Source of the DNA: an uncultured Candidatus Saccharibacteria bacterium
GTDB lineage: Bacteria; Patescibacteriota; Minisyncoccia; Minisyncoccales; PEYH01
Direction of reading: 5' to 3'
NCBI GenBank assembly: GCA_964388775.1
Contig: CAYMBW010000001.1
Coordinates: 71,317-135,316 of the forward strand
Length of the DNA: 64,000 nucleotides
Shown: piece by piece, positions 2,168 through 58,876 of the stretch
How the letters are laid out: every line of letters begins with the position of its first letter
Numbering within the stretch: position 1 is the stretch's first letter
Notes under the pieces: model-generated
What the model was told of the DNA's origin: nothing
The model's database searches: none
The model's input: only the letters and a program-made list of their open reading frames with translations
Translations under genes and position numbers: made by a program

Positions 2168-3766
2168 ATGAGGAATAAATTTGACTCCAATCAAAAAAGT
2201 TTAAATACTGTGCCGGAATATCAGAGAGAAATAGAAAGATTACAAGAAGACCTAAATGAAGTTACTGCTTATTTGGGTGATTTCCTTTCTTTTTTGCCTT
2301 TGCCGATTTGCGATGTAAGCCCGGCTGGAATGATAAGCAACGTGAACAAGGCCTTTGAGAAATTAACCGGCTTTCGTTTCAGCGAGGCGGTGGGCGAATA
2401 TTTATCAAAGTTTTTTACAGAGCGAGGCGACGTTAATACCTGTCTCACAACATCGGAGAAAGATAATGTGGTACAGAACAAAGAATTATCTTTAGTCACC
2501 AAGGATAATAGGAAAGTATCGGTGAGCGTGTCTTTTGCGGCGAAACGCGATAACAGAGGAGAATTAATGGGTTATTTCGTAGGGGTTACAGACATTACTC
2601 TTCTGAAAGATTTGCAAACCAGAACAGAGGAAAAAATCAAGGTCAGAACAAAGGACTTAGAGAATTCGAGAACCGCTTTGCTCAATATGCTTGAGGACGC
2701 CGAAGTGGCTAAACAGCAAATAGAAAAGGAAAAAAATAGAAGTCAGGTAATTTTTAGCAATTTTATTGATGGGCTGCTGATATTTAATCCTAAAGGAGAA
2801 TTGGAGTTTTTAAACCCCCAAGCGGAGTATTTCTTAAAGATAAAACAAACAACCTTGATTGGGAGAACAACTAAGCAATTGGTTGAGTTGCCGGAAATGC
2901 GGGATTTAGCAAAAATGCTTGCAGATAGAAAGAAAGATATTTTTAGAAAAGAGCTTCCTTTTGAAAAGGGAGAATTAGTTGTGGAAGTCACAACCCAGAC
3001 ATTGAATCCCGGAGAAGAAGACGCATCGACTCTTGTAATCCTTCATGATATTTCAAGAGAGAAGGTCATAGAGCGCCTAAAAAGTCAGTTTGTTTCGGTA
3101 GCCGCTCATCAGCTCAGAACCCCATTGTCTATTATAAAATGGTCATTGTCTATGATTTTGGAAGAGGAAATGGGACCACTTAATTCTGAACAGAAAGAAA
3201 TGCTGTCTCGGGCGAATCAGACAAACGAAAGAATGATTCGATTGATTAATGATTTGTTAAATGTCGCCAGGATAGAAGAAGGAAGATTTATGTATCGCCC
3301 GACGATAATAGATTTAGGTGAATTTGTGGAATCAATCGTTATTTCGTTAAAACCATTAGCCCAGAAGAAGAAAATAAAGCTCGGTCTCAAAATATCCAAA
3401 ACTAAAGCGCCGAAAGTTATAAGAGCTGATATTGAAAAATTAAACTTGGCAATCAAGAATATCATTGAGAACGCCATATTCTATACTGATTCCGGGGGCA
3501 GCGTTGAAGTTTCTTTAAGCAGAAAAAAGGATGAGGTGGAATTGTCTGTTAAGGACAATGGAATTGGTATTCCGAAAGACCAACTGGACAGAGTGTTCGC
3601 TAAATTTTTCAGAGCCGATAATGCCGTAAGGAAAGAGACCGAGGGCACGGGCTTGGGTTTGTTTATCGCCAAGAATGTTGTAGAAGCCCATAGGGGCAAG
3701 ATTTCGTTTGTTTCAGAAGAAAAAAAAGGCACGACCTTTACTATCTCTTTGCCGGCCATAGGGTGA
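2168..3766 (+). CDS. PAS-domain sensor histidine kinase
   Basis: HisKA H-box AAHQLRTPLSIIKWSL, N/G boxes NIIENAIFYT...GTGLGLFIAKNVVEAHRGKISF (HATPase_c); upstream PAS-like segments and coiled coil. Confidence 0.85.
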   Translation: MRNKFDSNQKSLNTVPEYQREIERLQEDLNEVTAYLGDFLSFLPLPICDVSPAGMISNVNKAFEKLTGFRFSEAVGEYLSKFFTERGDVNTCLTTSEKDNVVQNKELSLVTKDNRKVSVSVSFAAKRDNRGELMGYFVGVTDITLLKDLQTRTEEKIKVRTKDLENSRTALLNMLEDAEVAKQQIEKEKNRSQVIFSNFIDGLLIFNPKGELEFLNPQAEYFLKIKQTTLIGRTTKQLVELPEMRDLAKMLADRKKDIFRKELPFEKGELVVEVTTQTLNPGEEDASTLVILHDISREKVIERLKSQFVSVAAHQLRTPLSIIKWSLSMILEEEMGPLNSEQKEMLSRANQTNERMIRLINDLLNVARIEEGRFMYRPTIIDLGEFVESIVISLKPLAQKKKIKLGLKISKTKAPKVIRADIEKLNLAIKNIIENAIFYTDSGGSVEVSLSRKKDEVELSVKDNGIGIPKDQLDRVFAKFFRADNAVRKETEGTGLGLFIAKNVVEAHRGKISFVSEEKKGTTFTISLPAIG

Positions 3767-5716: not shown

Positions 5717-5971
5717 TTATTTCAAAACCCGGGTAATGCTGGATTTTTTTCTGGCCGCCGTATTTTTCTTGATAACATTTTCTTTGGCCGCCTTGTCCAC
5801 CGCCTTATAATACTTAGAGAGCAGTTCGCGCGCTTCTTTTATTTTGTTTTCTTTTTGCAGAGCAAGGATTTGCTTTTGCAGTCCCTTAATGATTTTTTTG
5901 TAGCGCAAATTAGACGCTCTGTTTCGGCGCTCTTTTCTCAATGATTTAATGGCTGATTTTGTAATAGGCAT
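5717..5971 (-). CDS. rpsT: 30S ribosomal protein S20
   Basis: MPITKSAIKSLRKERRNRASNLRYKK...; ATG verified at 5969-5971 on the minus strand; the tool ORF carries a 5-aa upstream extension. Confidence 0.85.
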   Translation of the reverse strand: MPITKSAIKSLRKERRNRASNLRYKKIIKGLQKQILALQKENKIKEARELLSKYYKAVDKAAKENVIKKNTAARKKSSITRVLK

Positions 5972-6080
5972 GTTTCCTTTGGTCAAATTAAAAAATTAAA
6001 ATGAAAAATTAAGAATAAGAATAAAATATTTCTTGTGGTTAATACAATATCATACCCTTTATTTTTTTTCAAGCTTGAGC

Positions 6081-6118
6081 GGTTGAAAGCAAGCGGGGAA
6101 TAGGGAAATTAAATTTGA
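6081..6118 (+). repeat. promoter-like direct repeat, copy 1 (GTTGAAARCAAGCRGGRAATAGGG), upstream of the DGR
   Basis: About 30-nt core shared with 9375-9417 (4 mismatches); contains -35-like TTGAAA. Confidence 0.5.
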
Positions 6119-6126
6119 CTTTGTTT

Positions 6127-6162
6127 TGACAATGTGTTATGATGATGTTGTTATTATAATGA
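6127..6162 (+). promoter_or_regulatory. candidate promoter for the DGR target gene
   Basis: TTGACA followed 20-23 nt later by TATTATAAT; strong SD AAGGAGG 8 nt before the ATG at 6300. Confidence 0.3.
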
Positions 6163-6299
6163 AGTTCTTTGAAAAAAGAGGTTCAACCTTATGAGGCGAG
6201 TTCTTTGGGCGTCCCTCAAAAGGGATTTCTAAAGGTCTCGTCTCATAAAAGAGACAAGACGTTTATCCGAGCGAATCGGGTAAGCAAAACAAAAGGAGG

Positions 6300-7208
6300 A
6301 TGACGATGCCAAAAGCATTGATCACTAGCCGTGACGACAAAGGTCGTCATGCGGTCCACTTGTTCGAGATTGAGTATGACAAAGCAAGACTCGATGATGC
6401 ACGCGCGCAGCGGCTCAACGAGCGTGGAGGCGAACTCCAGGAAGGCATCGCAAAGCTCATCGCAGAGCTCTCGGTGTCCAACCGGTTCGCTGACGAGGAA
6501 ATGGAGTCGAGTTACACCTACCCAGGGGAGTACAAGGGGCCGAAGCCGATCGAGGAGCAGATCAAGGCAATCGCCAAGATCTTTGGACTTGACCCGAGTC
6601 AGGCGTTGGAATACGCCAAGAACTTGCCGGCGCTCCCCGAGGGTGCCGAAGGGTGGTTCGCAATCCCGTCGGTCGACGCACTTGCCAAGAGGCACTTCCC
6701 CGAAGTGACTGACCCGGTTGAGAAGTACTGCCGAGCTGTTCAGCTCGTTCACGCCAAGATCGCGGAATTTCGAACGTTCTGCAACTACCGCGAGGGGCAG
6801 ATCACACCTGACCACCTTCGGATGCATGCTCATACGGCACGCACACTCGAGCAGATCGCTGAGACGCAGAAGGGTGATATCCTAATCATCGCTGCTGAGC
6901 TCGGCATGAGGCACGGGAATCCGATTGCCCGCTCTGTTCGCAGAGCTCGTGAGGTTTTCATCGATAACGAGTTCGGCCTCGGATCAGTGGCAGGAGGATC
7001 CATCCTTCTGACTCATCCAGAGAGAGAGGTTCGATGGGAACAGCTTCACATGGTTCTTCCTGGCGATGAGTTTGCCCCGGGAGCCGGTGGCGATTTCTCG
7101 GGCGCGCCCTGCTTCTACTTCCACGACGGCAGGCTCGGGTTCGGCACGTACTGGCTCGACAATGCCAATCAGAACTATGGCTCGGCGTCCGGCTTTCTCC
7201 CGCAGTAG
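6300..7208 (+). CDS. DGR target (variable) protein with C-terminal variable repeat; no signal peptide; GC-rich relative to host
   Basis: Last 41 codons (AGGDFSGAPCFYFHDGRLGFGTYWLDNANQNYGSASGFLPQ) form the VR; gene is about 55-65% GC in a roughly 34% GC genome; SD AAGGAGG. Confidence 0.85.
   Translation: MTMPKALITSRDDKGRHAVHLFEIEYDKARLDDARAQRLNERGGELQEGIAKLIAELSVSNRFADEEMESSYTYPGEYKGPKPIEEQIKAIAKIFGLDPSQALEYAKNLPALPEGAEGWFAIPSVDALAKRHFPEVTDPVEKYCRAVQLVHAKIAEFRTFCNYREGQITPDHLRMHAHTARTLEQIAETQKGDILIIAAELGMRHGNPIARSVRRAREVFIDNEFGLGSVAGGSILLTHPEREVRWEQLHMVLPGDEFAPGAGGDFSGAPCFYFHDGRLGFGTYWLDNANQNYGSASGFLPQ
7083..7205 (+). repeat. DGR variable repeat (VR), 3' end of target gene
   Basis: 123 nt aligning with 7640-7762; 12 mismatches, every one at an A in the TR copy; identical GC-rich 3' end (IMH-like). 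Confidence 0.85.
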
Positions 7209-7282
7209 TACTTTGGACTCTTGGGACTTTTGAACCCTTTTGGGGGTTTGACTTCTTGTCTCGGGGGCTAACAAGACATCAA

Positions 7283-7325
7283 TGAGGGCTGTTCACCACG
7301 CATGACAGCCCTCACTCTTTTTTTA
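7283..7325 (+). terminator. rho-independent terminator after the target gene
   Basis: GAGGGCTGT-tcaccacgcatg-ACAGCCCTC followed by a T-run; preceded by a second hairpin TCTTGT-ctcgggggcta-ACAAGA (7252-7276). Confidence 0.6.
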
Positions 7326-7639
7326 TTTTCTAAACCTGATATACTGATAGACGAGTATAGGCTAATGTATGGCAGTTTACGCCCGCCTGCAGCGCTTTGC
7401 GCAGCAATGCGGGCAGGGATTGCTATCGCCGAACTCTCTCTTCAATAAAAAGAGATTAAACAACCAGAATCTTGACGACTACGGTTTTCAAGAGCGAGTT
7501 GTCTTGAGGAGATACTGCTTGCTCTTGTCTGGGGCAGATGCCTCGAGTTTATCGAGGGGCTGCTGCCGAATAAAATACAGGAAGAAAAGATTTTCTTAAC
7601 TTCCAGTGATATGGATGGACAAGGGCAAATTAACCGGAA

Positions 7640-7762
7640 GCCGATGGCGATTTCTCGAACGCGCCCTACTTCAACTTCAACGACGGCAAGCTCAAGTTCG
7701 ACACGAACTGGCTCGACAATGCCAATCAGAACTATGGCTCGGCGTCCGGCTTTCTCCCGAAG
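7640..7762 (+). repeat. DGR template repeat (TR)
   Basis: Encodes ADGDFSNAPYFNFNDGKLKFDTNWLDNANQNYGSASGFLPK in the VR frame; the variable codons are AAC, AAG, GAC, GAT and TAC; about 29 A residues, 12 substituted in the VR. Confidence 0.85.
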
Positions 7763-7765
7763 TCT

Positions 7766-7806
7766 CTTCTCAAAGAACAAAGAGTGTCTGTTTTAAGACA
7801 CTCTTT
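7766..7806. terminator. perfect 14-bp hairpin immediately 3' of the TR, also at the 3' end of avd on the minus strand
   Basis: AACAAAGAGTGTCT-gtttta-AGACACTCTTTGTT; possible bidirectional terminator or DGR structural element. Confidence 0.5.
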
Positions 7807-7815
7807 GTTTATCAG

Positions 7816-8166
7816 TTAATTATTCAAGGACCTTATCCAACCGCCGAGCATTCGGCCGATTTCATCAATTTCTTTTTCAATCAAGATATATTTTTTATTA
7901 TCCAATGCCTTTGTATCTTTTAATAAGCGCATAAATATGCGGAGCATATCAAGCATAGAATCAATATTTCTTAAATCTTTAAGTTTTTCATTTTTAGGAA
8001 GACGGCTTACTTTAAGAATGGACTCTATAATCTCAAGCAGGGCATCCTCTGTTTTTGCATATATCGTAAATCTGTCCTGTTTAGGAATCAGGTACCTGAA
8101 TTCATGAAGTAATTTGTATAATTCATACAACTTTTTGAAAATGGGGATTTCATCTTCAATATTCAT
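7816..8166 (-). CDS. avd: DGR accessory variability determinant (Avd-like four-helix-bundle protein)
   Basis: 116 aa; C-terminus EIDEIGRMLGGWIRSLNN and overall pattern match Bordetella bAvd / 23S-IVS four-helix-bundle family (EVGRILGSWIARVN). Confidence 0.75.
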   Translation of the reverse strand: MNIEDEIPIFKKLYELYKLLHEFRYLIPKQDRFTIYAKTEDALLEIIESILKVSRLPKNEKLKDLRNIDSMLDMLRIFMRLLKDTKALDNKKYILIEKEIDEIGRMLGGWIRSLNN

Positions 8167-8187
8167 TTCTTTTAATCTTAATTATAT

Positions 8188-9240
8188 ATGGACTTATTTA
8201 ATCAAATAATTTCTTTAGAGAATTTATTTTTGGCTTGGGATAAATTCAAGAAAGGAAAGGGGAATAAATTAGATGTCCAGGAATTTGAATTTAATCTTGA
8301 AAAGAATATATTCCAACTTCACAAGGATCTTAAAAATAGATGCTATATCCATTCGCCATATGAAAGTTTTTTTATTAAAGATCCGAAAAGAAGGAATATC
8401 CATAAGGCCACTGTCCGAGATCGTGTAGTCCATCATGCTATATTTGCGATAATTAACCCGATTTTTGAGCCGACCTTTATTTCCAATTCTTTCTCTTGTA
8501 GGGTTGGCAAGGGAAATCATAAAGGCGTAGATGCCCTCGCAAGAATGATAAGGAAAGCAAGTAATAATGGTTTTAAAAATTGTTTTATTCTTAAATGCGA
8601 TATTAAAAATTTTTTTGGAACAATTGACCATAGAATTTTATTAGACATTGTCCGCAAGCGGATAAAAGACGATGACTCAATGCGGCTCTTGGAAGAAATT
8701 ATTGAAAGTTTTTCTTCCCAATATTCAACTCTTTTTGAACGAAAAGGTTTGCCGATAGGCAATTTAACTTCTCAATTGTTTGCCAATATCTACCTTAATA
8801 AATTTGACCAATTTATTAAGCACAAATTAAGGATTAAGAATTATCTAAGATATACTGATGATTTTGTAATTTTATCAGGAGATAAAATCTATTTAGGAAA
8901 ACTTATCTCAACGATTAGTTTATTTCTCTCGGATAATCTTGCTCTTAAATTACATCCTAAAAAAGTTACAATTCGCAAATTTCATCAAGGGATAGATTTC
9001 CTTGGCTACATACTTCTGCCGCATTATCGTCTTCTGCGGGCGAAAACAAGACGGCGAATATTTAGAAAGATAGGGGAGCGAATTAGGGAATATAAAAATG
9101 GGACAATCAGTGAGCAGTCCCTCGTACAATCATTACAATCATATCTTGGCGTCCTATCACATGCTAATACATATGAGCTTGAACAAGAATTGAGAAATCA
9201 ATTTTGGTTTTGGCTCAATTCGGTTCCGTCAACCCGATAG
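8188..9240 (+). CDS. DGR reverse transcriptase
   Basis: RT motifs include the DGR-specific GLPIGNLTSQLFANIYL (I/LGxxxSQ) and YxDD box RYTDDFVIL; N-terminal LFLAWDKFKKGK. Confidence 0.9.
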   Translation: MDLFNQIISLENLFLAWDKFKKGKGNKLDVQEFEFNLEKNIFQLHKDLKNRCYIHSPYESFFIKDPKRRNIHKATVRDRVVHHAIFAIINPIFEPTFISNSFSCRVGKGNHKGVDALARMIRKASNNGFKNCFILKCDIKNFFGTIDHRILLDIVRKRIKDDDSMRLLEEIIESFSSQYSTLFERKGLPIGNLTSQLFANIYLNKFDQFIKHKLRIKNYLRYTDDFVILSGDKIYLGKLISTISLFLSDNLALKLHPKKVTIRKFHQGIDFLGYILLPHYRLLRAKTRRRIFRKIGERIREYKNGTISEQSLVQSLQSYLGVLSHANTYELEQELRNQFWFWLNSVPSTR

Positions 9241-9374
9241 TAAGCGATAGCACTCTTTCTATCCGTTCGTTCCATATGTTGCTACGCCACCTTGTTATGT
9301 GCGAGTCCTCTTTACATTGAGTGGAGCATAAAGTCAAATTTTGAAAATAATTGTTTGAAAATTATGGCGAGTGG

Positions 9375-9417
9375 GTAGTTGAAAACAAGCAGGAAATAGG
9401 GTAATATTAAAGTGGAT
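9375..9417 (+). promoter_or_regulatory. direct repeat copy 2 / sigma70-like promoter for the downstream toxin pair
   Basis: TTGAAA, 17 nt, TAATAT; homologous to 6081-6118. Confidence 0.45.
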
Positions 9418-9720
9418 ATGAAACAAATACCCCAATTTTTGCAGAAATATTTTTGGGATGTAGATTTTTTAACTCTAAATGTAAAACAGCATCCCCGATT
9501 TGTTATTGAGAGGATTTTAGAATACGGAGATAAAAAATCAATTAAATGGATGGAAGATAATTTTTCTTTAGGAGAAATTAAGAATACCCTTTTTATTTCT
9601 AAAAATCTTTCGCAAAAATCAGCCAATTTTTGGCAGCTTATTTTCGGCTTAGATAAAGATAAAATTCTATGCTTGAGGAAATCATTTCAAAAAAGACACA
9701 AAGCAATTTGGAGATATTAA
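9412..9720 (+). CDS. small protein upstream of nucleotidyltransferase, putative antitoxin partner (ATG at 9418)
   Basis: 102-aa ORF overlapping the next gene by about 50 nt in another frame (typical TA operon layout); no strong motif. Confidence 0.35.
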   Translation: MDMKQIPQFLQKYFWDVDFLTLNVKQHPRFVIERILEYGDKKSIKWMEDNFSLGEIKNTLFISKNLSQKSANFWQLIFGLDKDKILCLRKSFQKRHKAIWRY

Positions 9721-10283
9721 TAAAATCAGACATAATTGCCGATTTTTATCTTGCCGGCGGGACAGGGTTGGCTTTATATTTAAACCATCGCCTTTCCGTT
9801 GATTTAGATTTTTTTAGCAAAAAAGAATTTGATAATAAATCCCTGCTTCAAGAGATTAAAAAAATAGGCAAATTTTCAATCGGGAAAGAGTCGGAGAATA
9901 CTTTAGCGGGTGTTTTTAATGATACAAAAATCGCTTTTTTGACATACGATTATCCTCTTCTTTTTCCATTAAAAAAAATTAGAAATATTAACGTTGCCGA
10001 TATCAAAGACATTGCTTGTATGAAAATCTCCGCGATTTCTTCGCGGGGCAGTAAAAAAGATTTTATTGATTTATACTTTATTTGCCAGCAGGGCATTTCA
10101 TTAAAACAGGTATTAATGCTGTTTGGAAGAAAATACAGGGGCATTGATTATAATATGATGCATATTTTGAAAAGTTTGGTCTTTTTTAATGACGCCGATA
10201 GCGACCCTATGCCAAAAATGTTGGTTCCTGTTACTTGGGAACAGGTCAAGAAATTTTTTCAAGGAAAAGTAAAAACAAATTAA
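9669..10283 (+). CDS. nucleotidyltransferase of AbiEii/DUF1814-like toxin family (tentative)
   Basis: FYLAGGTGLALYLNHRLSVDLDFF matches the GGTAL...HRxSxDLDF nucleotidyltransferase signature. Confidence 0.5.
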   Translation: MLEEIISKKTQSNLEILIKSDIIADFYLAGGTGLALYLNHRLSVDLDFFSKKEFDNKSLLQEIKKIGKFSIGKESENTLAGVFNDTKIAFLTYDYPLLFPLKKIRNINVADIKDIACMKISAISSRGSKKDFIDLYFICQQGISLKQVLMLFGRKYRGIDYNMMHILKSLVFFNDADSDPMPKMLVPVTWEQVKKFFQGKVKTN

Positions 10284-16024: not shown

Positions 16025-16096
16025 GTCCCTGTGGTTCAACGGATAAAACACCTCCCTCCGGAGGAGGAAATGGCTGTTCGAATCAGCCCAGGGACA
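16025..16096 (+). tRNA. tRNA-Arg (anticodon CCG)
   Basis: Hand-folded cloverleaf: acceptor GTCCCTG/CAGGGAC, anticodon stem CCTCC/GGAGG with loop CTCCGGA, T-arm GGCTG-TTCGAAT-CAGCC, discriminator A; CCA not encoded. Confidence 0.7.
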
Positions 16097-16278
16097 CAAA
16101 AGTCCATGGGAGGAAGCATGGAGGGAAGTCCGACTTCCCCCTTTCCCTCGGAATAATTAACCTACAAATCATACTTGATTTTGGTCAGAAATTAAATGAC
16201 TTAACCAATGCCCCTATGTGCCCTTATGGTTAGATTTTAGATGATTCAATGCGAGGCATCGCAAGAATAGAGATTTTT

Positions 16279-24491: not shown

Positions 24492-24870
24492 AGTGGAGAT
24501 GGCGGGATTTGAACCCGCGTATGGGAAGGCGTTTGAATTGTTTCTACAAGCTTACCTTGATTAATGTTGTCGGTCAGAGGCCTTGAATCAAGGGAAACAG
24601 CTTCTGGCTTAGGCCTAATTTTGGCAATTCTTTTCGGCCAACGAAGAATCGCTTATCTCGATAAATTACACCCGTTTTGCTTATCGAGAGTCCGCAAAAC
24701 AGATGGGCGTTGATTATTGCTAATCAAGCGCCGACCGTGGCGTTATGCATAAGCATAAGCCGGTCTTTGAAATAAGTTGGCACTTATTTGATTCTTGGAA
24801 GTTTAGCCAGATTCCAAGAGCTGGGCTTGCGCAATTCATCAGCTGTTTCCTATCGATGCCTTTCACCCCC
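24492..24870 (-). ncRNA. ssrA: tmRNA (SsrA)
   Basis: 5' GGGGGTGAAAGGCATCG..., 3' tRNA-like end GGGTTCAAATCCCGCCATCTCCAC; candidate tag frame GCC AAC TTA TTT CAA AGA CCG GCT TAT GCT TAT GCA TAA (ANLFQRPAYAYA); adjacent to smpB. Confidence 0.7.
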
Positions 24871-58717: not shown

Positions 58718-58792
58718 TGGTTTCTCTATTTTTAACTTTTCATTTTTAACTTTTAATTTGAGCGAAGTTCGCCCAAGGCGGACAAGCGATTG

Positions 58793-58876
58793 TGCCGGAG
58801 GAGGGAATCGAACCCACAAGTCCTTGCGGACAATGGATTTTGAATCCATCGTGTTTACCTATTTCACCACTCCGGC
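58793..58876 (-). tRNA. tRNA-Leu (anticodon CAA)
   Basis: Minus strand reads GCCGGAGTGGTGAAATAGGTAAACACGATGGATTCAAAATCCATTGTCCGCAAGGACTTGTGGGTTCGATTCCCTCCTCCGGCA: 7-bp acceptor, long variable arm, T-loop TTCGATT, anticodon loop TTCAAAA. Confidence 0.8.

Follow-up and report, generated by a model that had tools for sequence, protein, structure and literature searches.

Why does the 3′ end of a gene occur a second time a few hundred bases downstream, and why do the two copies differ at one kind of base? The question is raised by a locus in a 64,000-nucleotide stretch (the window) of contig CAYMBW010000001.1, from an uncultured Candidatus Saccharibacteria bacterium. Here the last codons of a gene, as a variable repeat (VR), face a noncoding copy, as a template repeat (TR), which is followed by an avd gene and a reverse transcriptase (RT) gene. 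These are the parts of a diversity-generating retroelement (DGR). In the following, it is argued that the locus is almost certainly a complete and currently active DGR in a chromosome of the Patescibacteria, or candidate phyla radiation (CPR).

The direct repeat is 130 nucleotides long with a fixed offset of 557 (7077-7206 and 7634-7763; 90% identity). A previous sequence-only reading of the window had aligned 123 nucleotides by hand and counted 12 differences, all of them at template adenines. An ungapped alignment of VR 7083-7205 with TR 7640-7762 gave the same counts. When the mismatches were tabulated by template base, 12 of 12 fell on a TR adenine and none in the window fell on another base (hypergeometric P = 3.6e-9, with 29 adenines in the 123-nucleotide TR span). 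The ten codon changes listed in that reading were all correct on realignment. It was also found that the repeat starts six bases further 5′, which adds a 13th mismatch, G7081 versus A7638 (GAA>GGA). Over the full 130 nucleotides, 13 of 13 mismatches lie on TR adenines (P = 7.9e-10). No third copy of the repeat, and hence no third VR, was found in the 64-kb window.

Is the adenine rule common among relatives of this locus? Related loci were gathered with an alignment of close homologues, and TR and VR were examined in 22 loci, namely the window and 21 related loci. In the related loci, 376 of the 390 VR/TR mismatches are on TR adenines, and 62% of the TR adenines are mutated. Mismatches at other bases amount to about 3.6%. 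The TR adenines of the 22 loci are placed at codon position 2 (371) or position 1 (253) of the VR frame and hardly ever at position 3 (9). The accepted substitutions of the related loci are mostly A>G (64%, 240/376), followed by A>T (23%) and A>C (13%), and A>G accounts for 9 of the 13 changes in the window. In the cDNA made in vitro by the DGR of phage BPP-1, A>T is the commonest change, followed by A>G and then A>C (PMC7826257). The bias towards A>G may be a property of the enzyme or may result from selection, for instance in favour of codons for Gly, Asp, and Ser; selection at the protein level could be the reason for the difference from the in vitro spectrum.

The cassette has the order target(+), TR(+), avd(-), and RT(+), which makes a complete set of DGR parts. 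The start of the target gene was set at 6306 because all homologues begin with MPKAL or MSQTL and because an AGGAGG sequence lies 9 nucleotides upstream. The Avd protein, an accessory protein that most DGRs have, scores 86 bits against NF033474 DivGenRetAVD (NCBIfam equivalog cut-off 80, E = 1.8e-24) and 69 bits against PF22296 bAvd (cut-off 40, E = 5e-19). The RT matches RVT_1 (E = 1.2e-21) and carries IGNLTSQ, an instance of the [I/V/L]GxxxSQ signature that DGR RTs have in motif 4, together with the catalytic YTDD. Its scores with the family models of group II introns, retrons, and DRTs are under their cut-offs. Its top solved relative is 8ub7_A, a reverse transcriptase of 328 residues (E = 1.9e-42), with the motif aligned; I take this structure to be the BPP-1 bRT. 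Of 80 genome loci, about 27 have the same cassette order, as do about 45 metagenome loci, and the inverted orientation of avd recurs in nearly all of the related loci that bear a cassette. Since the element is flanked by rpsT/holA on one side and by a DUF6922-AbiEii pair and then ruvA/murE on the other, the DGR is chromosomal.

Is the element active? In eight loci taken from other assemblies of this species, the sequence agrees with that of the window over as much as 6.9 kb, with no or one single-nucleotide difference (position 3714) outside the VR. Their VRs, in contrast, differ from the window VR at 12-16 positions. The TR is identical in all five of these loci that include it. The VR/TR differences in the same-species loci are all at TR adenines except for one C>T change (TR C7662, TR index 28; VR 7105 = T; GCG>GTG, A>V), which is common to one variant lineage (L001, L004, L005, L006, and L008). 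At the protein level, the 90% cluster of the target comprises 10 proteins with identical residues 1-258 and nine distinct C-termini; its NCBI member P0126 is the window protein. An ENA protein of the same species, P0124, is a 326-aa variant whose frame is shifted inside the VR (…WLDYADQILWLGVRLSPAVV…), either by a homing indel or by an assembly error. Three distinct variants in the fetched loci (six in the protein cluster) have one common 5′ block and diverge 3′ of it, a pattern that fits 3′-anchored partial replacement. The sister assemblies are direct population evidence of ongoing, TR-directed, adenine-specific diversification of the VR.

The positions that vary within the species are confined to 7087-7173, and the homology of TR and VR ends at 7206. 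The sequence-only reading had described the 3′ part of the repeat as an invariant region like an initiation of mutagenic homing (IMH) site. By definition, an IMH begins with a G+C-rich stretch and is where mutagenesis stops on the 3′ side, and its counterpart in the TR, the IMH*, is not identical to it (PMC5758913). That description holds for about 7174-7202, which is invariant in the same-species variants, but not for 7150-7173, which varies. The same reading had counted the AAG>CAG change at 7203 among the mutations. It was revealed, rather, to be a fixed difference: the TR has CCGAAGT and the VR has CCGCAGT in 21 of 22 loci, with L059 (TR = CCGGCGT) as the exception. Neither G7081 nor C7203 ever varies among the same-species variants. 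Judged from these alignments, the C7203/A7760 pair appears to be a discriminator of the IMH/IMH* type rather than a product of mutagenesis. The final Q of the target is kept in 101 of 113 family sequences, and the Y codon in the invariant stretch varies across the family (Y 37, F 70, C 10).

Why is the tract just 5′ of C7203 identical to the TR in the window? The tract had been given as the last 60 nucleotides; the identity is real, but it extends over 53 nucleotides, as the difference at 7203 falls inside the last 60. Its 10 adenines are all unmutated, whereas 11 of 18 are mutated in the more 5′ part of the window VR (Fisher p = 0.003), and this contrast, together with the invariance of the last 29 nucleotides (7174-7202) in all same-species variants, is what an IMH followed backwards by a structurally constrained WLDNANQNYG segment, intolerant of change, would produce. 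However, three to five of the same 10 adenines are mutated in sister assemblies of the species, where the segment reads WLDGAYQDYG, WLDNAPQHYG, WLDYAYQDYG, WLDSANRYYG, WLDYASQGYG, or WLDNAHQDYG. In the 21 related loci, 61% of the tract adenines are mutated (minimum 33%), and columns 288, 290, 291, and 292 of the target are among the most variable, with 2.4-3.4 bits in 120 homologues. Constraint is thus refuted for 7150-7173 and survives only for about 7174-7202; as an account of the whole tract it is very improbable. The unmutated tract of the window is an outlier. Could it instead be TR-like through selection in the population for the residues N, N, Q, N, and Y encoded by the TR? Some of these do recur in variants (N288 in three and Q291 in most), but no other variant keeps the full set, and restoration of the TR nucleotides at 10 adenines together is not expected, so that I regard this as improbable too. 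Even less credible, and in my view practically dismissed, is a simple duplication of the gene's 3′ end, in tandem or dispersed, with divergence by point mutation beside an unrelated or relic RT. The TR 5′ flank does show a faint similarity in translation to the target from about residue 232. Nevertheless, the mismatches affect a single base of a single copy (P ~1e-9), genomes that are otherwise clonal have different VRs beside an unchanged TR, and the architecture and the adenine bias are repeated in more than 40 other loci. The restriction to adenines, the variation among sister assemblies, and the mismatches of the related loci refute it.

Two explanations of the outlier deserve more weight. 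The tract may be that of a real variant, left by a recent transfer from TR to VR that was not mutagenic, either through partial, 3′-anchored homing of a faithful cDNA or through RecA-type gene conversion from the TR DNA. Anchoring at the 3′ end is expected of homing, variants with common 5′ blocks differ 3′ of them, and variant L004 has an unmutated tract in its middle, so TR-like patches recur. From the per-adenine rate of about 0.38 in the sisters, the chance that no adenine is mutated would be about 0.01 per variant, which is unusual but not impossible among nine variants. On the other hand, misincorporation is about 50% per adenine in BPP-1 (PMC7826257) and 61% here, and a faithful stretch of 10 adenines is unlikely in a single cDNA. 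I consider such a transfer quite possible, though not to the point of calling it probable. The other explanation is that TR-derived k-mers, or a consensus, were threaded through the 3′ part of the VR during assembly. Sister contigs often break at the VR (L001 and L006 end 56-91 nucleotides past the gene), the exact window protein is found on one contig only, and TR reads raise the coverage of the unmutated path. Yet the 53-nucleotide tract is bounded by two VR-specific bases, T7149 and C7203, so that a single read of 100-150 nucleotides spans it, and a chimera with both flanks VR-specific requires a small final k. The occurrence of T7149 and C7203 within one read length mildly favours a real haplotype, and an artefact seems rather unlikely.

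Table 1. Coordinates of the DGR and of the elements around it (positions in the window; nt, nucleotides).
Feature	Position	Strand	Details
Promoter-like site	6115-6143	+	TTGACT-17-TATGAT with TG, 5′ of the target; consensus scan only, weak evidence
DGR target (variable-protein) gene	6306-7208	+	300 aa
VR	7077-7206	+	Last 43 codons of the target
VR mismatches within the 123-nt span	7087, 7101, 7102, 7111, 7116, 7122, 7132, 7137, 7138, 7144, 7149, 7203
TR-identical tract	7150-7202	+	53 nt; no adenine mutated in the window assembly
IMH-like VR 3′ end	7174-7206	+	Invariant TATGGCTCGGCGTCCGGCTTTCTCCCG at 7174-7202 (one A), G+C-rich run at 7179-7193, then C7203 and AGT
Hairpin after the VR	7230-7251	+	TTGAACCC-TTTT-GGGGGTTTGA; 24 nt past the end of VR homology
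Terminator-like hairpin	7283-7314	+	Followed by a T-run (7315-7329); would end the target transcript; hairpin and T-run kept in the family alignment
-10-like box TATACT	7340-7345	+	TATAnT in nearly all loci, TG before; family alignments
Structured leader RNA	7360-7633	+	Upstream of the TR; five helices, H1-H5
Helix H1	7360-7378/7417-7430
Helix H2	7461-7479/7484-7501
Helix H3	7519-7530/7617-7628
Helix H4	7534-7537/7563-7566
Helix H5	7580-7590/7594-7604
Helix P, 5′ strand	7504-7516	+	TTGAGGAGATACT, nearly invariant; two bases 5′ of the H3 5′ strand
Helix P, 3′ strand	7761-7773	+	AGTCTCTTCTCAA; begins with the second A of the AAG at the TR end
TR	7634-7763	+	31 adenines, all but one at codon position 1 or 2 of the VR frame
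Stem-loop	7775-7810	+	15-bp stem directly after helix P; structure kept, sequence not
avd (accessory variability determinant)	7816-8166	-	116 aa; strand opposite to target, TR, and RT
DGR RT	8188-9240	+	350 aa

What lies between the VR and avd? In an alignment of 21 loci, the VR-TR spacer has a conserved order (Table 1): a hairpin, a terminator, a TATAnT box, a leader of about 280 nucleotides, the TR, AAGTCTCTCC, a stem-loop, and the stop codon of avd. The hairpin after the VR, a candidate target-recognition hairpin, sits within a conserved CTTG...CTTTTG...CTTG element. Most related loci have something comparable after their VR, and so do family members without an RT within 4 kb. The TATACT box is presumed from its conservation to be the promoter of the DGR RNA. 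The conserved structured RNA in which the TR is embedded is about 460 nucleotides long (window 7340-7810), and it was also found in L009-L088 and L094-L206. A search of Rfam gave nothing credible over 5900-9500, and hence no family for the leader and TR RNA. Two open reading frames (ORFs) of this region, one of 76 aa (7369-7599) and one antisense (7442-7780), were dismissed as genes, as the region behaves as structured RNA; the former has no family match.

The secondary structure of the leader is supported by covariation. An RNAalifold analysis of 18 loci gave 52 leader pairs, 37 of which have compensatory changes. In this alignment, 96.8% of the leader cells are paired, against 38-50% when the partner strand is slid, and none of 500 shuffles reached the observed value. 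H3 is a long-range helix whose 3′ strand ends five nucleotides before the TR. At the other end of the TR, helix P has 232 of 273 cells paired in register versus 73-146 in shifted registers (85.4% paired versus 35-54% when slid), with compensatory changes at 8 of its 13 pairs. A metagenome scan with part of the leader block revealed about 45 further loci; as far as their contigs reach, these have the same order of target, TR, avd, and RT. In 28 non-redundant metagenome loci, the paired fractions are 97% for H1, 98% for H2, 89% for H3, 99% for H4, 88% for H5, and 81% for P, for which 8 of the 13 leader bases were set by the scan pattern itself. Of the 119 matches of the scan, about 70 were one unrelated human-gut sequence (ACAGGCAGAGCAGAGATACTGCTTGCAAAAAA) without RT, Avd, or target and were discarded, as were the chance matches L092 and L103. 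In the window, the H1 loop has a G+C-rich insertion of about 36 nucleotides at 7379-7416 (ACGCCCGCCTGCAGCGCTTTGCGCAGCAATGCGGGCAGG), itself a hairpin, which is absent from the 17 other aligned loci; in metagenome locus L153, a shorter insertion occupies this position.

Between the TR and the stop codon of avd there are only about 50 nucleotides, which form a stem-loop. In 22 of 22 loci, this site has a stem of about 9-17 bp. By analogy, the stem-loop at 7775-7810 is a candidate Avd-binding stem-loop and/or bidirectional terminator. The TR 5′ flank at 7570-7633 is faintly similar in translation to 7020-7076 of the target (tblastn, several loci), as though a larger part of the gene had once been duplicated to give the TR. 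Some of this target-like flank now serves as the 3′ strand of helix H3.

The 5′ strands of P and H3 are adjacent in the leader. Thus, one contiguous leader strand (7504-7530) would clamp both ends of the TR via P and H3 and close the TR into a loop. In the cryo-EM structure of the BPP-1 complex, a primer duplex of the TR with the downstream spacer (Sp) adjoins a 'stop' duplex of the upstream flank with Sp, and the Avd-binding stem-loops lie just 3′ of the TR (Handa et al., bioRxiv 10.1101/2023.10.23.563531). Their survey of other DGRs covered only 40 nucleotides upstream. Is the same pairing present here? Pairing of the TR upstream flank with a sequence 3′ of the stem-loop, as in BPP-1, was searched by eye; a match of only six nucleotides was found in the window and none at the equivalent site of L009, the single other locus inspected. 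The BPP-1-like downstream pairing was rejected because H3 has strong covariation instead. I propose, tentatively and with slightly less than even confidence, that the TR-bridging RNA is circularly permuted relative to BPP-1 in a large clade of Patescibacteria DGRs, and that a leader nucleotide near U7516/G7517 primes the cDNA. By analogy with BPP-1, priming near U7516/G7517 would begin on about A7760, which is the position of the fixed A/C difference between TR and VR. No description of the permuted bridging strand was found in the literature covered, which excluded Paul et al. 2017.

What is the diversified protein? The target and 89 diverse members of its family had no sequence match in Pfam, NCBIfam, or PDB at E <= 10, and the target is thus not a member by sequence of FGE-sulfatase (PF03781), DUF1566, or another described C-type-lectin (CLec) family. 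Matches of the target to PhoB and L32e (E ~0.3-1) were dismissed as weak. The AlphaFold2 (AF2) model of the target, made from an alignment of 89 representatives of 50%-identity clusters, has a mean predicted local distance difference test score (pLDDT) of 97.4 and a predicted template modelling score (pTM) of 0.91; a shallow model from 53 close homologues (about 70% identical) had a pLDDT of 48.6 and was discarded. Foldseek with the target model returned nothing significant in PDB or BFVD. The entries listed beside the model are the Lcl C-terminal domain, intimin, pFGE, PvdO, and many C-type-lectin-like domains (CTLDs). Based on the model, the C-terminal part of the target is predicted to be a divergent C-type-lectin-like (CLec-like) domain, while the N-terminal half is helical and without a structural match. 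The adenine codons alternate with conserved Phe/Leu codons on two antiparallel strands of the model (266-273 and 276-283) and fill the following loop. Binding of a ligand by the target is suggested by the predicted fold only.

The family is large: there are 2067 matches in a 90% database and 1535 clusters at 50% identity, 345 of which are below E = 1e-30. A search with a profile, meant to reach more distant relatives, gave for the most part the close ones again. The named genomes with the family are all Patescibacteria, and their lineages include Paceibacterota and Vogel-, Uhr-, Wolfe-, Berkel-, Nomura-, Ryan-, Jorgensen-, and Yanofskybacteria. Only 3 family loci are in IMG/VR versus 103 in genomes. 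Some genomes have several copies, some of them in tandem (L019, L027, and L067). Loci without RT, Avd, or TR within 4 kb (among L011-L088) keep the GSASGFLPQ end of the protein and the CTTG...CTTTTG hairpin after the stop codon; such members may be targets diversified in trans. Three members (P0006, P0018, and P0023) carry the JGI label 'ribosomal protein S16'. The family has no S16 match in Pfam or NCBIfam, and the label is probably a propagated mis-annotation.

The base composition of the target gene is unusual. Its G+C content is 58%, versus 39% for the window, and its G+C content at third codon positions (GC3) is 0.68, versus about 0.42 in neighbouring genes. The G+C excess of the target over its flanks has a mean of 14.8 points and exceeds 5 points in 65 of 69 loci. 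On average, the G+C content is 0.60 in the target, 0.38 in the RT, and 0.42 in the flanks, so that the RT is below the flanks; RT and avd are at or under the level of the host. Because A and T are both depleted in the target, this is not simple avoidance of adenines.

Directly 3′ of the RT, a gene for a DUF6922 protein overlaps a gene for an AbiEii-family nucleotidyltransferase toxin (window 9412-10283), and the pair, of the type IV toxin-antitoxin or abortive-infection kind, was found in all same-species loci. Elsewhere in the window are tRNA-Arg(CCG) (16025-16097), a tmRNA (24493-24870) with the tag ANLFQRPAYAYA, and tRNA-Leu(CAA) (58792-58876).

How would the element work? An RNA of about 460 nucleotides, consisting of the structured leader, the TR, and the terminal stem-loop, would be transcribed from about 7350 to about 7810. 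The RT and Avd would copy the TR into cDNA, with misincorporation opposite template adenines only. The cDNA would then replace the VR, being anchored at the G+C-rich, IMH-like end (about 7174-7206) with a variable 5′ extent. In this way, up to about 19 adenine-containing codons could be rewritten, placed on alternate residues of the predicted β-hairpin and on the next loop of the putative CLec-like domain. The window VR would be a variant whose 3′-proximal 53 nucleotides happen to equal the TR. The adenine rule, the parts, the diversification in the population, the limits of the variation, and the RNA secondary structure come from the sequences themselves. The priming of the cDNA, the parts played by Avd and the stem-loop, and the 3′-anchored partial replacement are modelled here on phage BPP-1.

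Several points speak against this picture. The target has neither a signal peptide-like N-terminus nor a transmembrane (TM) or other hydrophobic segment (the 19-residue hydropathy maximum is 1.18). The placement of the variable residues on one exposed face is implied by the strand periodicity of the model alone. In about 50 of the 80 family loci there is no RT within 4 kb, and the members may not all be DGR targets. The variants come from metagenome assemblies and may include consensus or chimeric paths across the variable region. Finally, I infer, rather than observe, the ends of the RNA, the priming site, and homing.

What is new here? The window element is a new DGR of an already known kind, from the Patescibacteria clade, and its adenine signature is textbook. 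Its value is that of a clean and verifiably active example from CPR bacteria. The nine VRs in otherwise clonal assemblies constitute a natural record of homing, including apparently partial, 3′-anchored replacements. The target family, CPR-wide with more than 1,500 clusters at 50% identity and neither a Pfam model nor an export signal, now has a confident structure model, and these data are relevant to what Roux et al. 2021 (PMC8144416) asked, namely whether the targets of CPR DGRs are truly non-membrane proteins. The newest element is not the adenine signature but the apparently permuted, covariation-supported RNA scaffold around the TR. The RNA model predicts how RT and Avd may be positioned in a lineage far from BPP-1, and it implies that what is conserved may be the topology of the ribonucleoprotein and not the order in which the RNA parts follow one another. 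If the permuted scaffold is true, the same three-dimensional logic has been reached from the opposite side of the template.

How does the element compare with known systems? Differences from Treponema denticola TvpA and other FGE-type proteins are clear: the target has no FGE-sulfatase, DUF1566, Pfam, or significant Foldseek match, and it has a helical N-terminal half with no structural match and no lipoprotein or secretion signal. The BPP-1 DGR (mtd-avd-TR-brt) is the prototype of DGRs. It and the window element both have adenine-specific transfer from TR to VR, an RT with the [I/V/L]GxxxSQ motif, and an Avd partner. In both, the VR lies at the C-terminus of the target, in a fold that is of CLec type in BPP-1 and is predicted to be so in the window; its 3′ end has a G+C-rich IMH, to which a non-identical IMH* in the TR corresponds, and a hairpin follows the VR. 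The ends of the TR are clamped in BPP-1, and by prediction in the window, by two adjacent duplexes with one bridging RNA strand, and a stem-loop lies just 3′ of the TR, Avd-binding in BPP-1 and a candidate for this here.

On the other hand, the order in the window is target, TR, avd (inverted), and RT, and the bridging strand (7504-7530) is upstream of the TR, whereas that of BPP-1 is in the downstream spacer. The IMH and IMH* of the window differ by a single fixed base before the homology ends. The accepted VRs of the window family are mostly A>G, while the BPP-1 cDNA in vitro is led by A>T. Moreover, the window DGR is in the chromosome of a CPR bacterium, and its target is not a phage tail fibre. 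Targets of the CPR 'DGR clade 2' have no recognisable TM segment or conserved domain (Roux et al. 2021, PMC8144416). The window element resembles the cellular DGRs of this clade in its host lineage, its cellular context, and a target without a TM segment or a known domain. Thus, it is most likely a member of the Patescibacteria/CPR cellular DGRs of 'DGR clade 2'.

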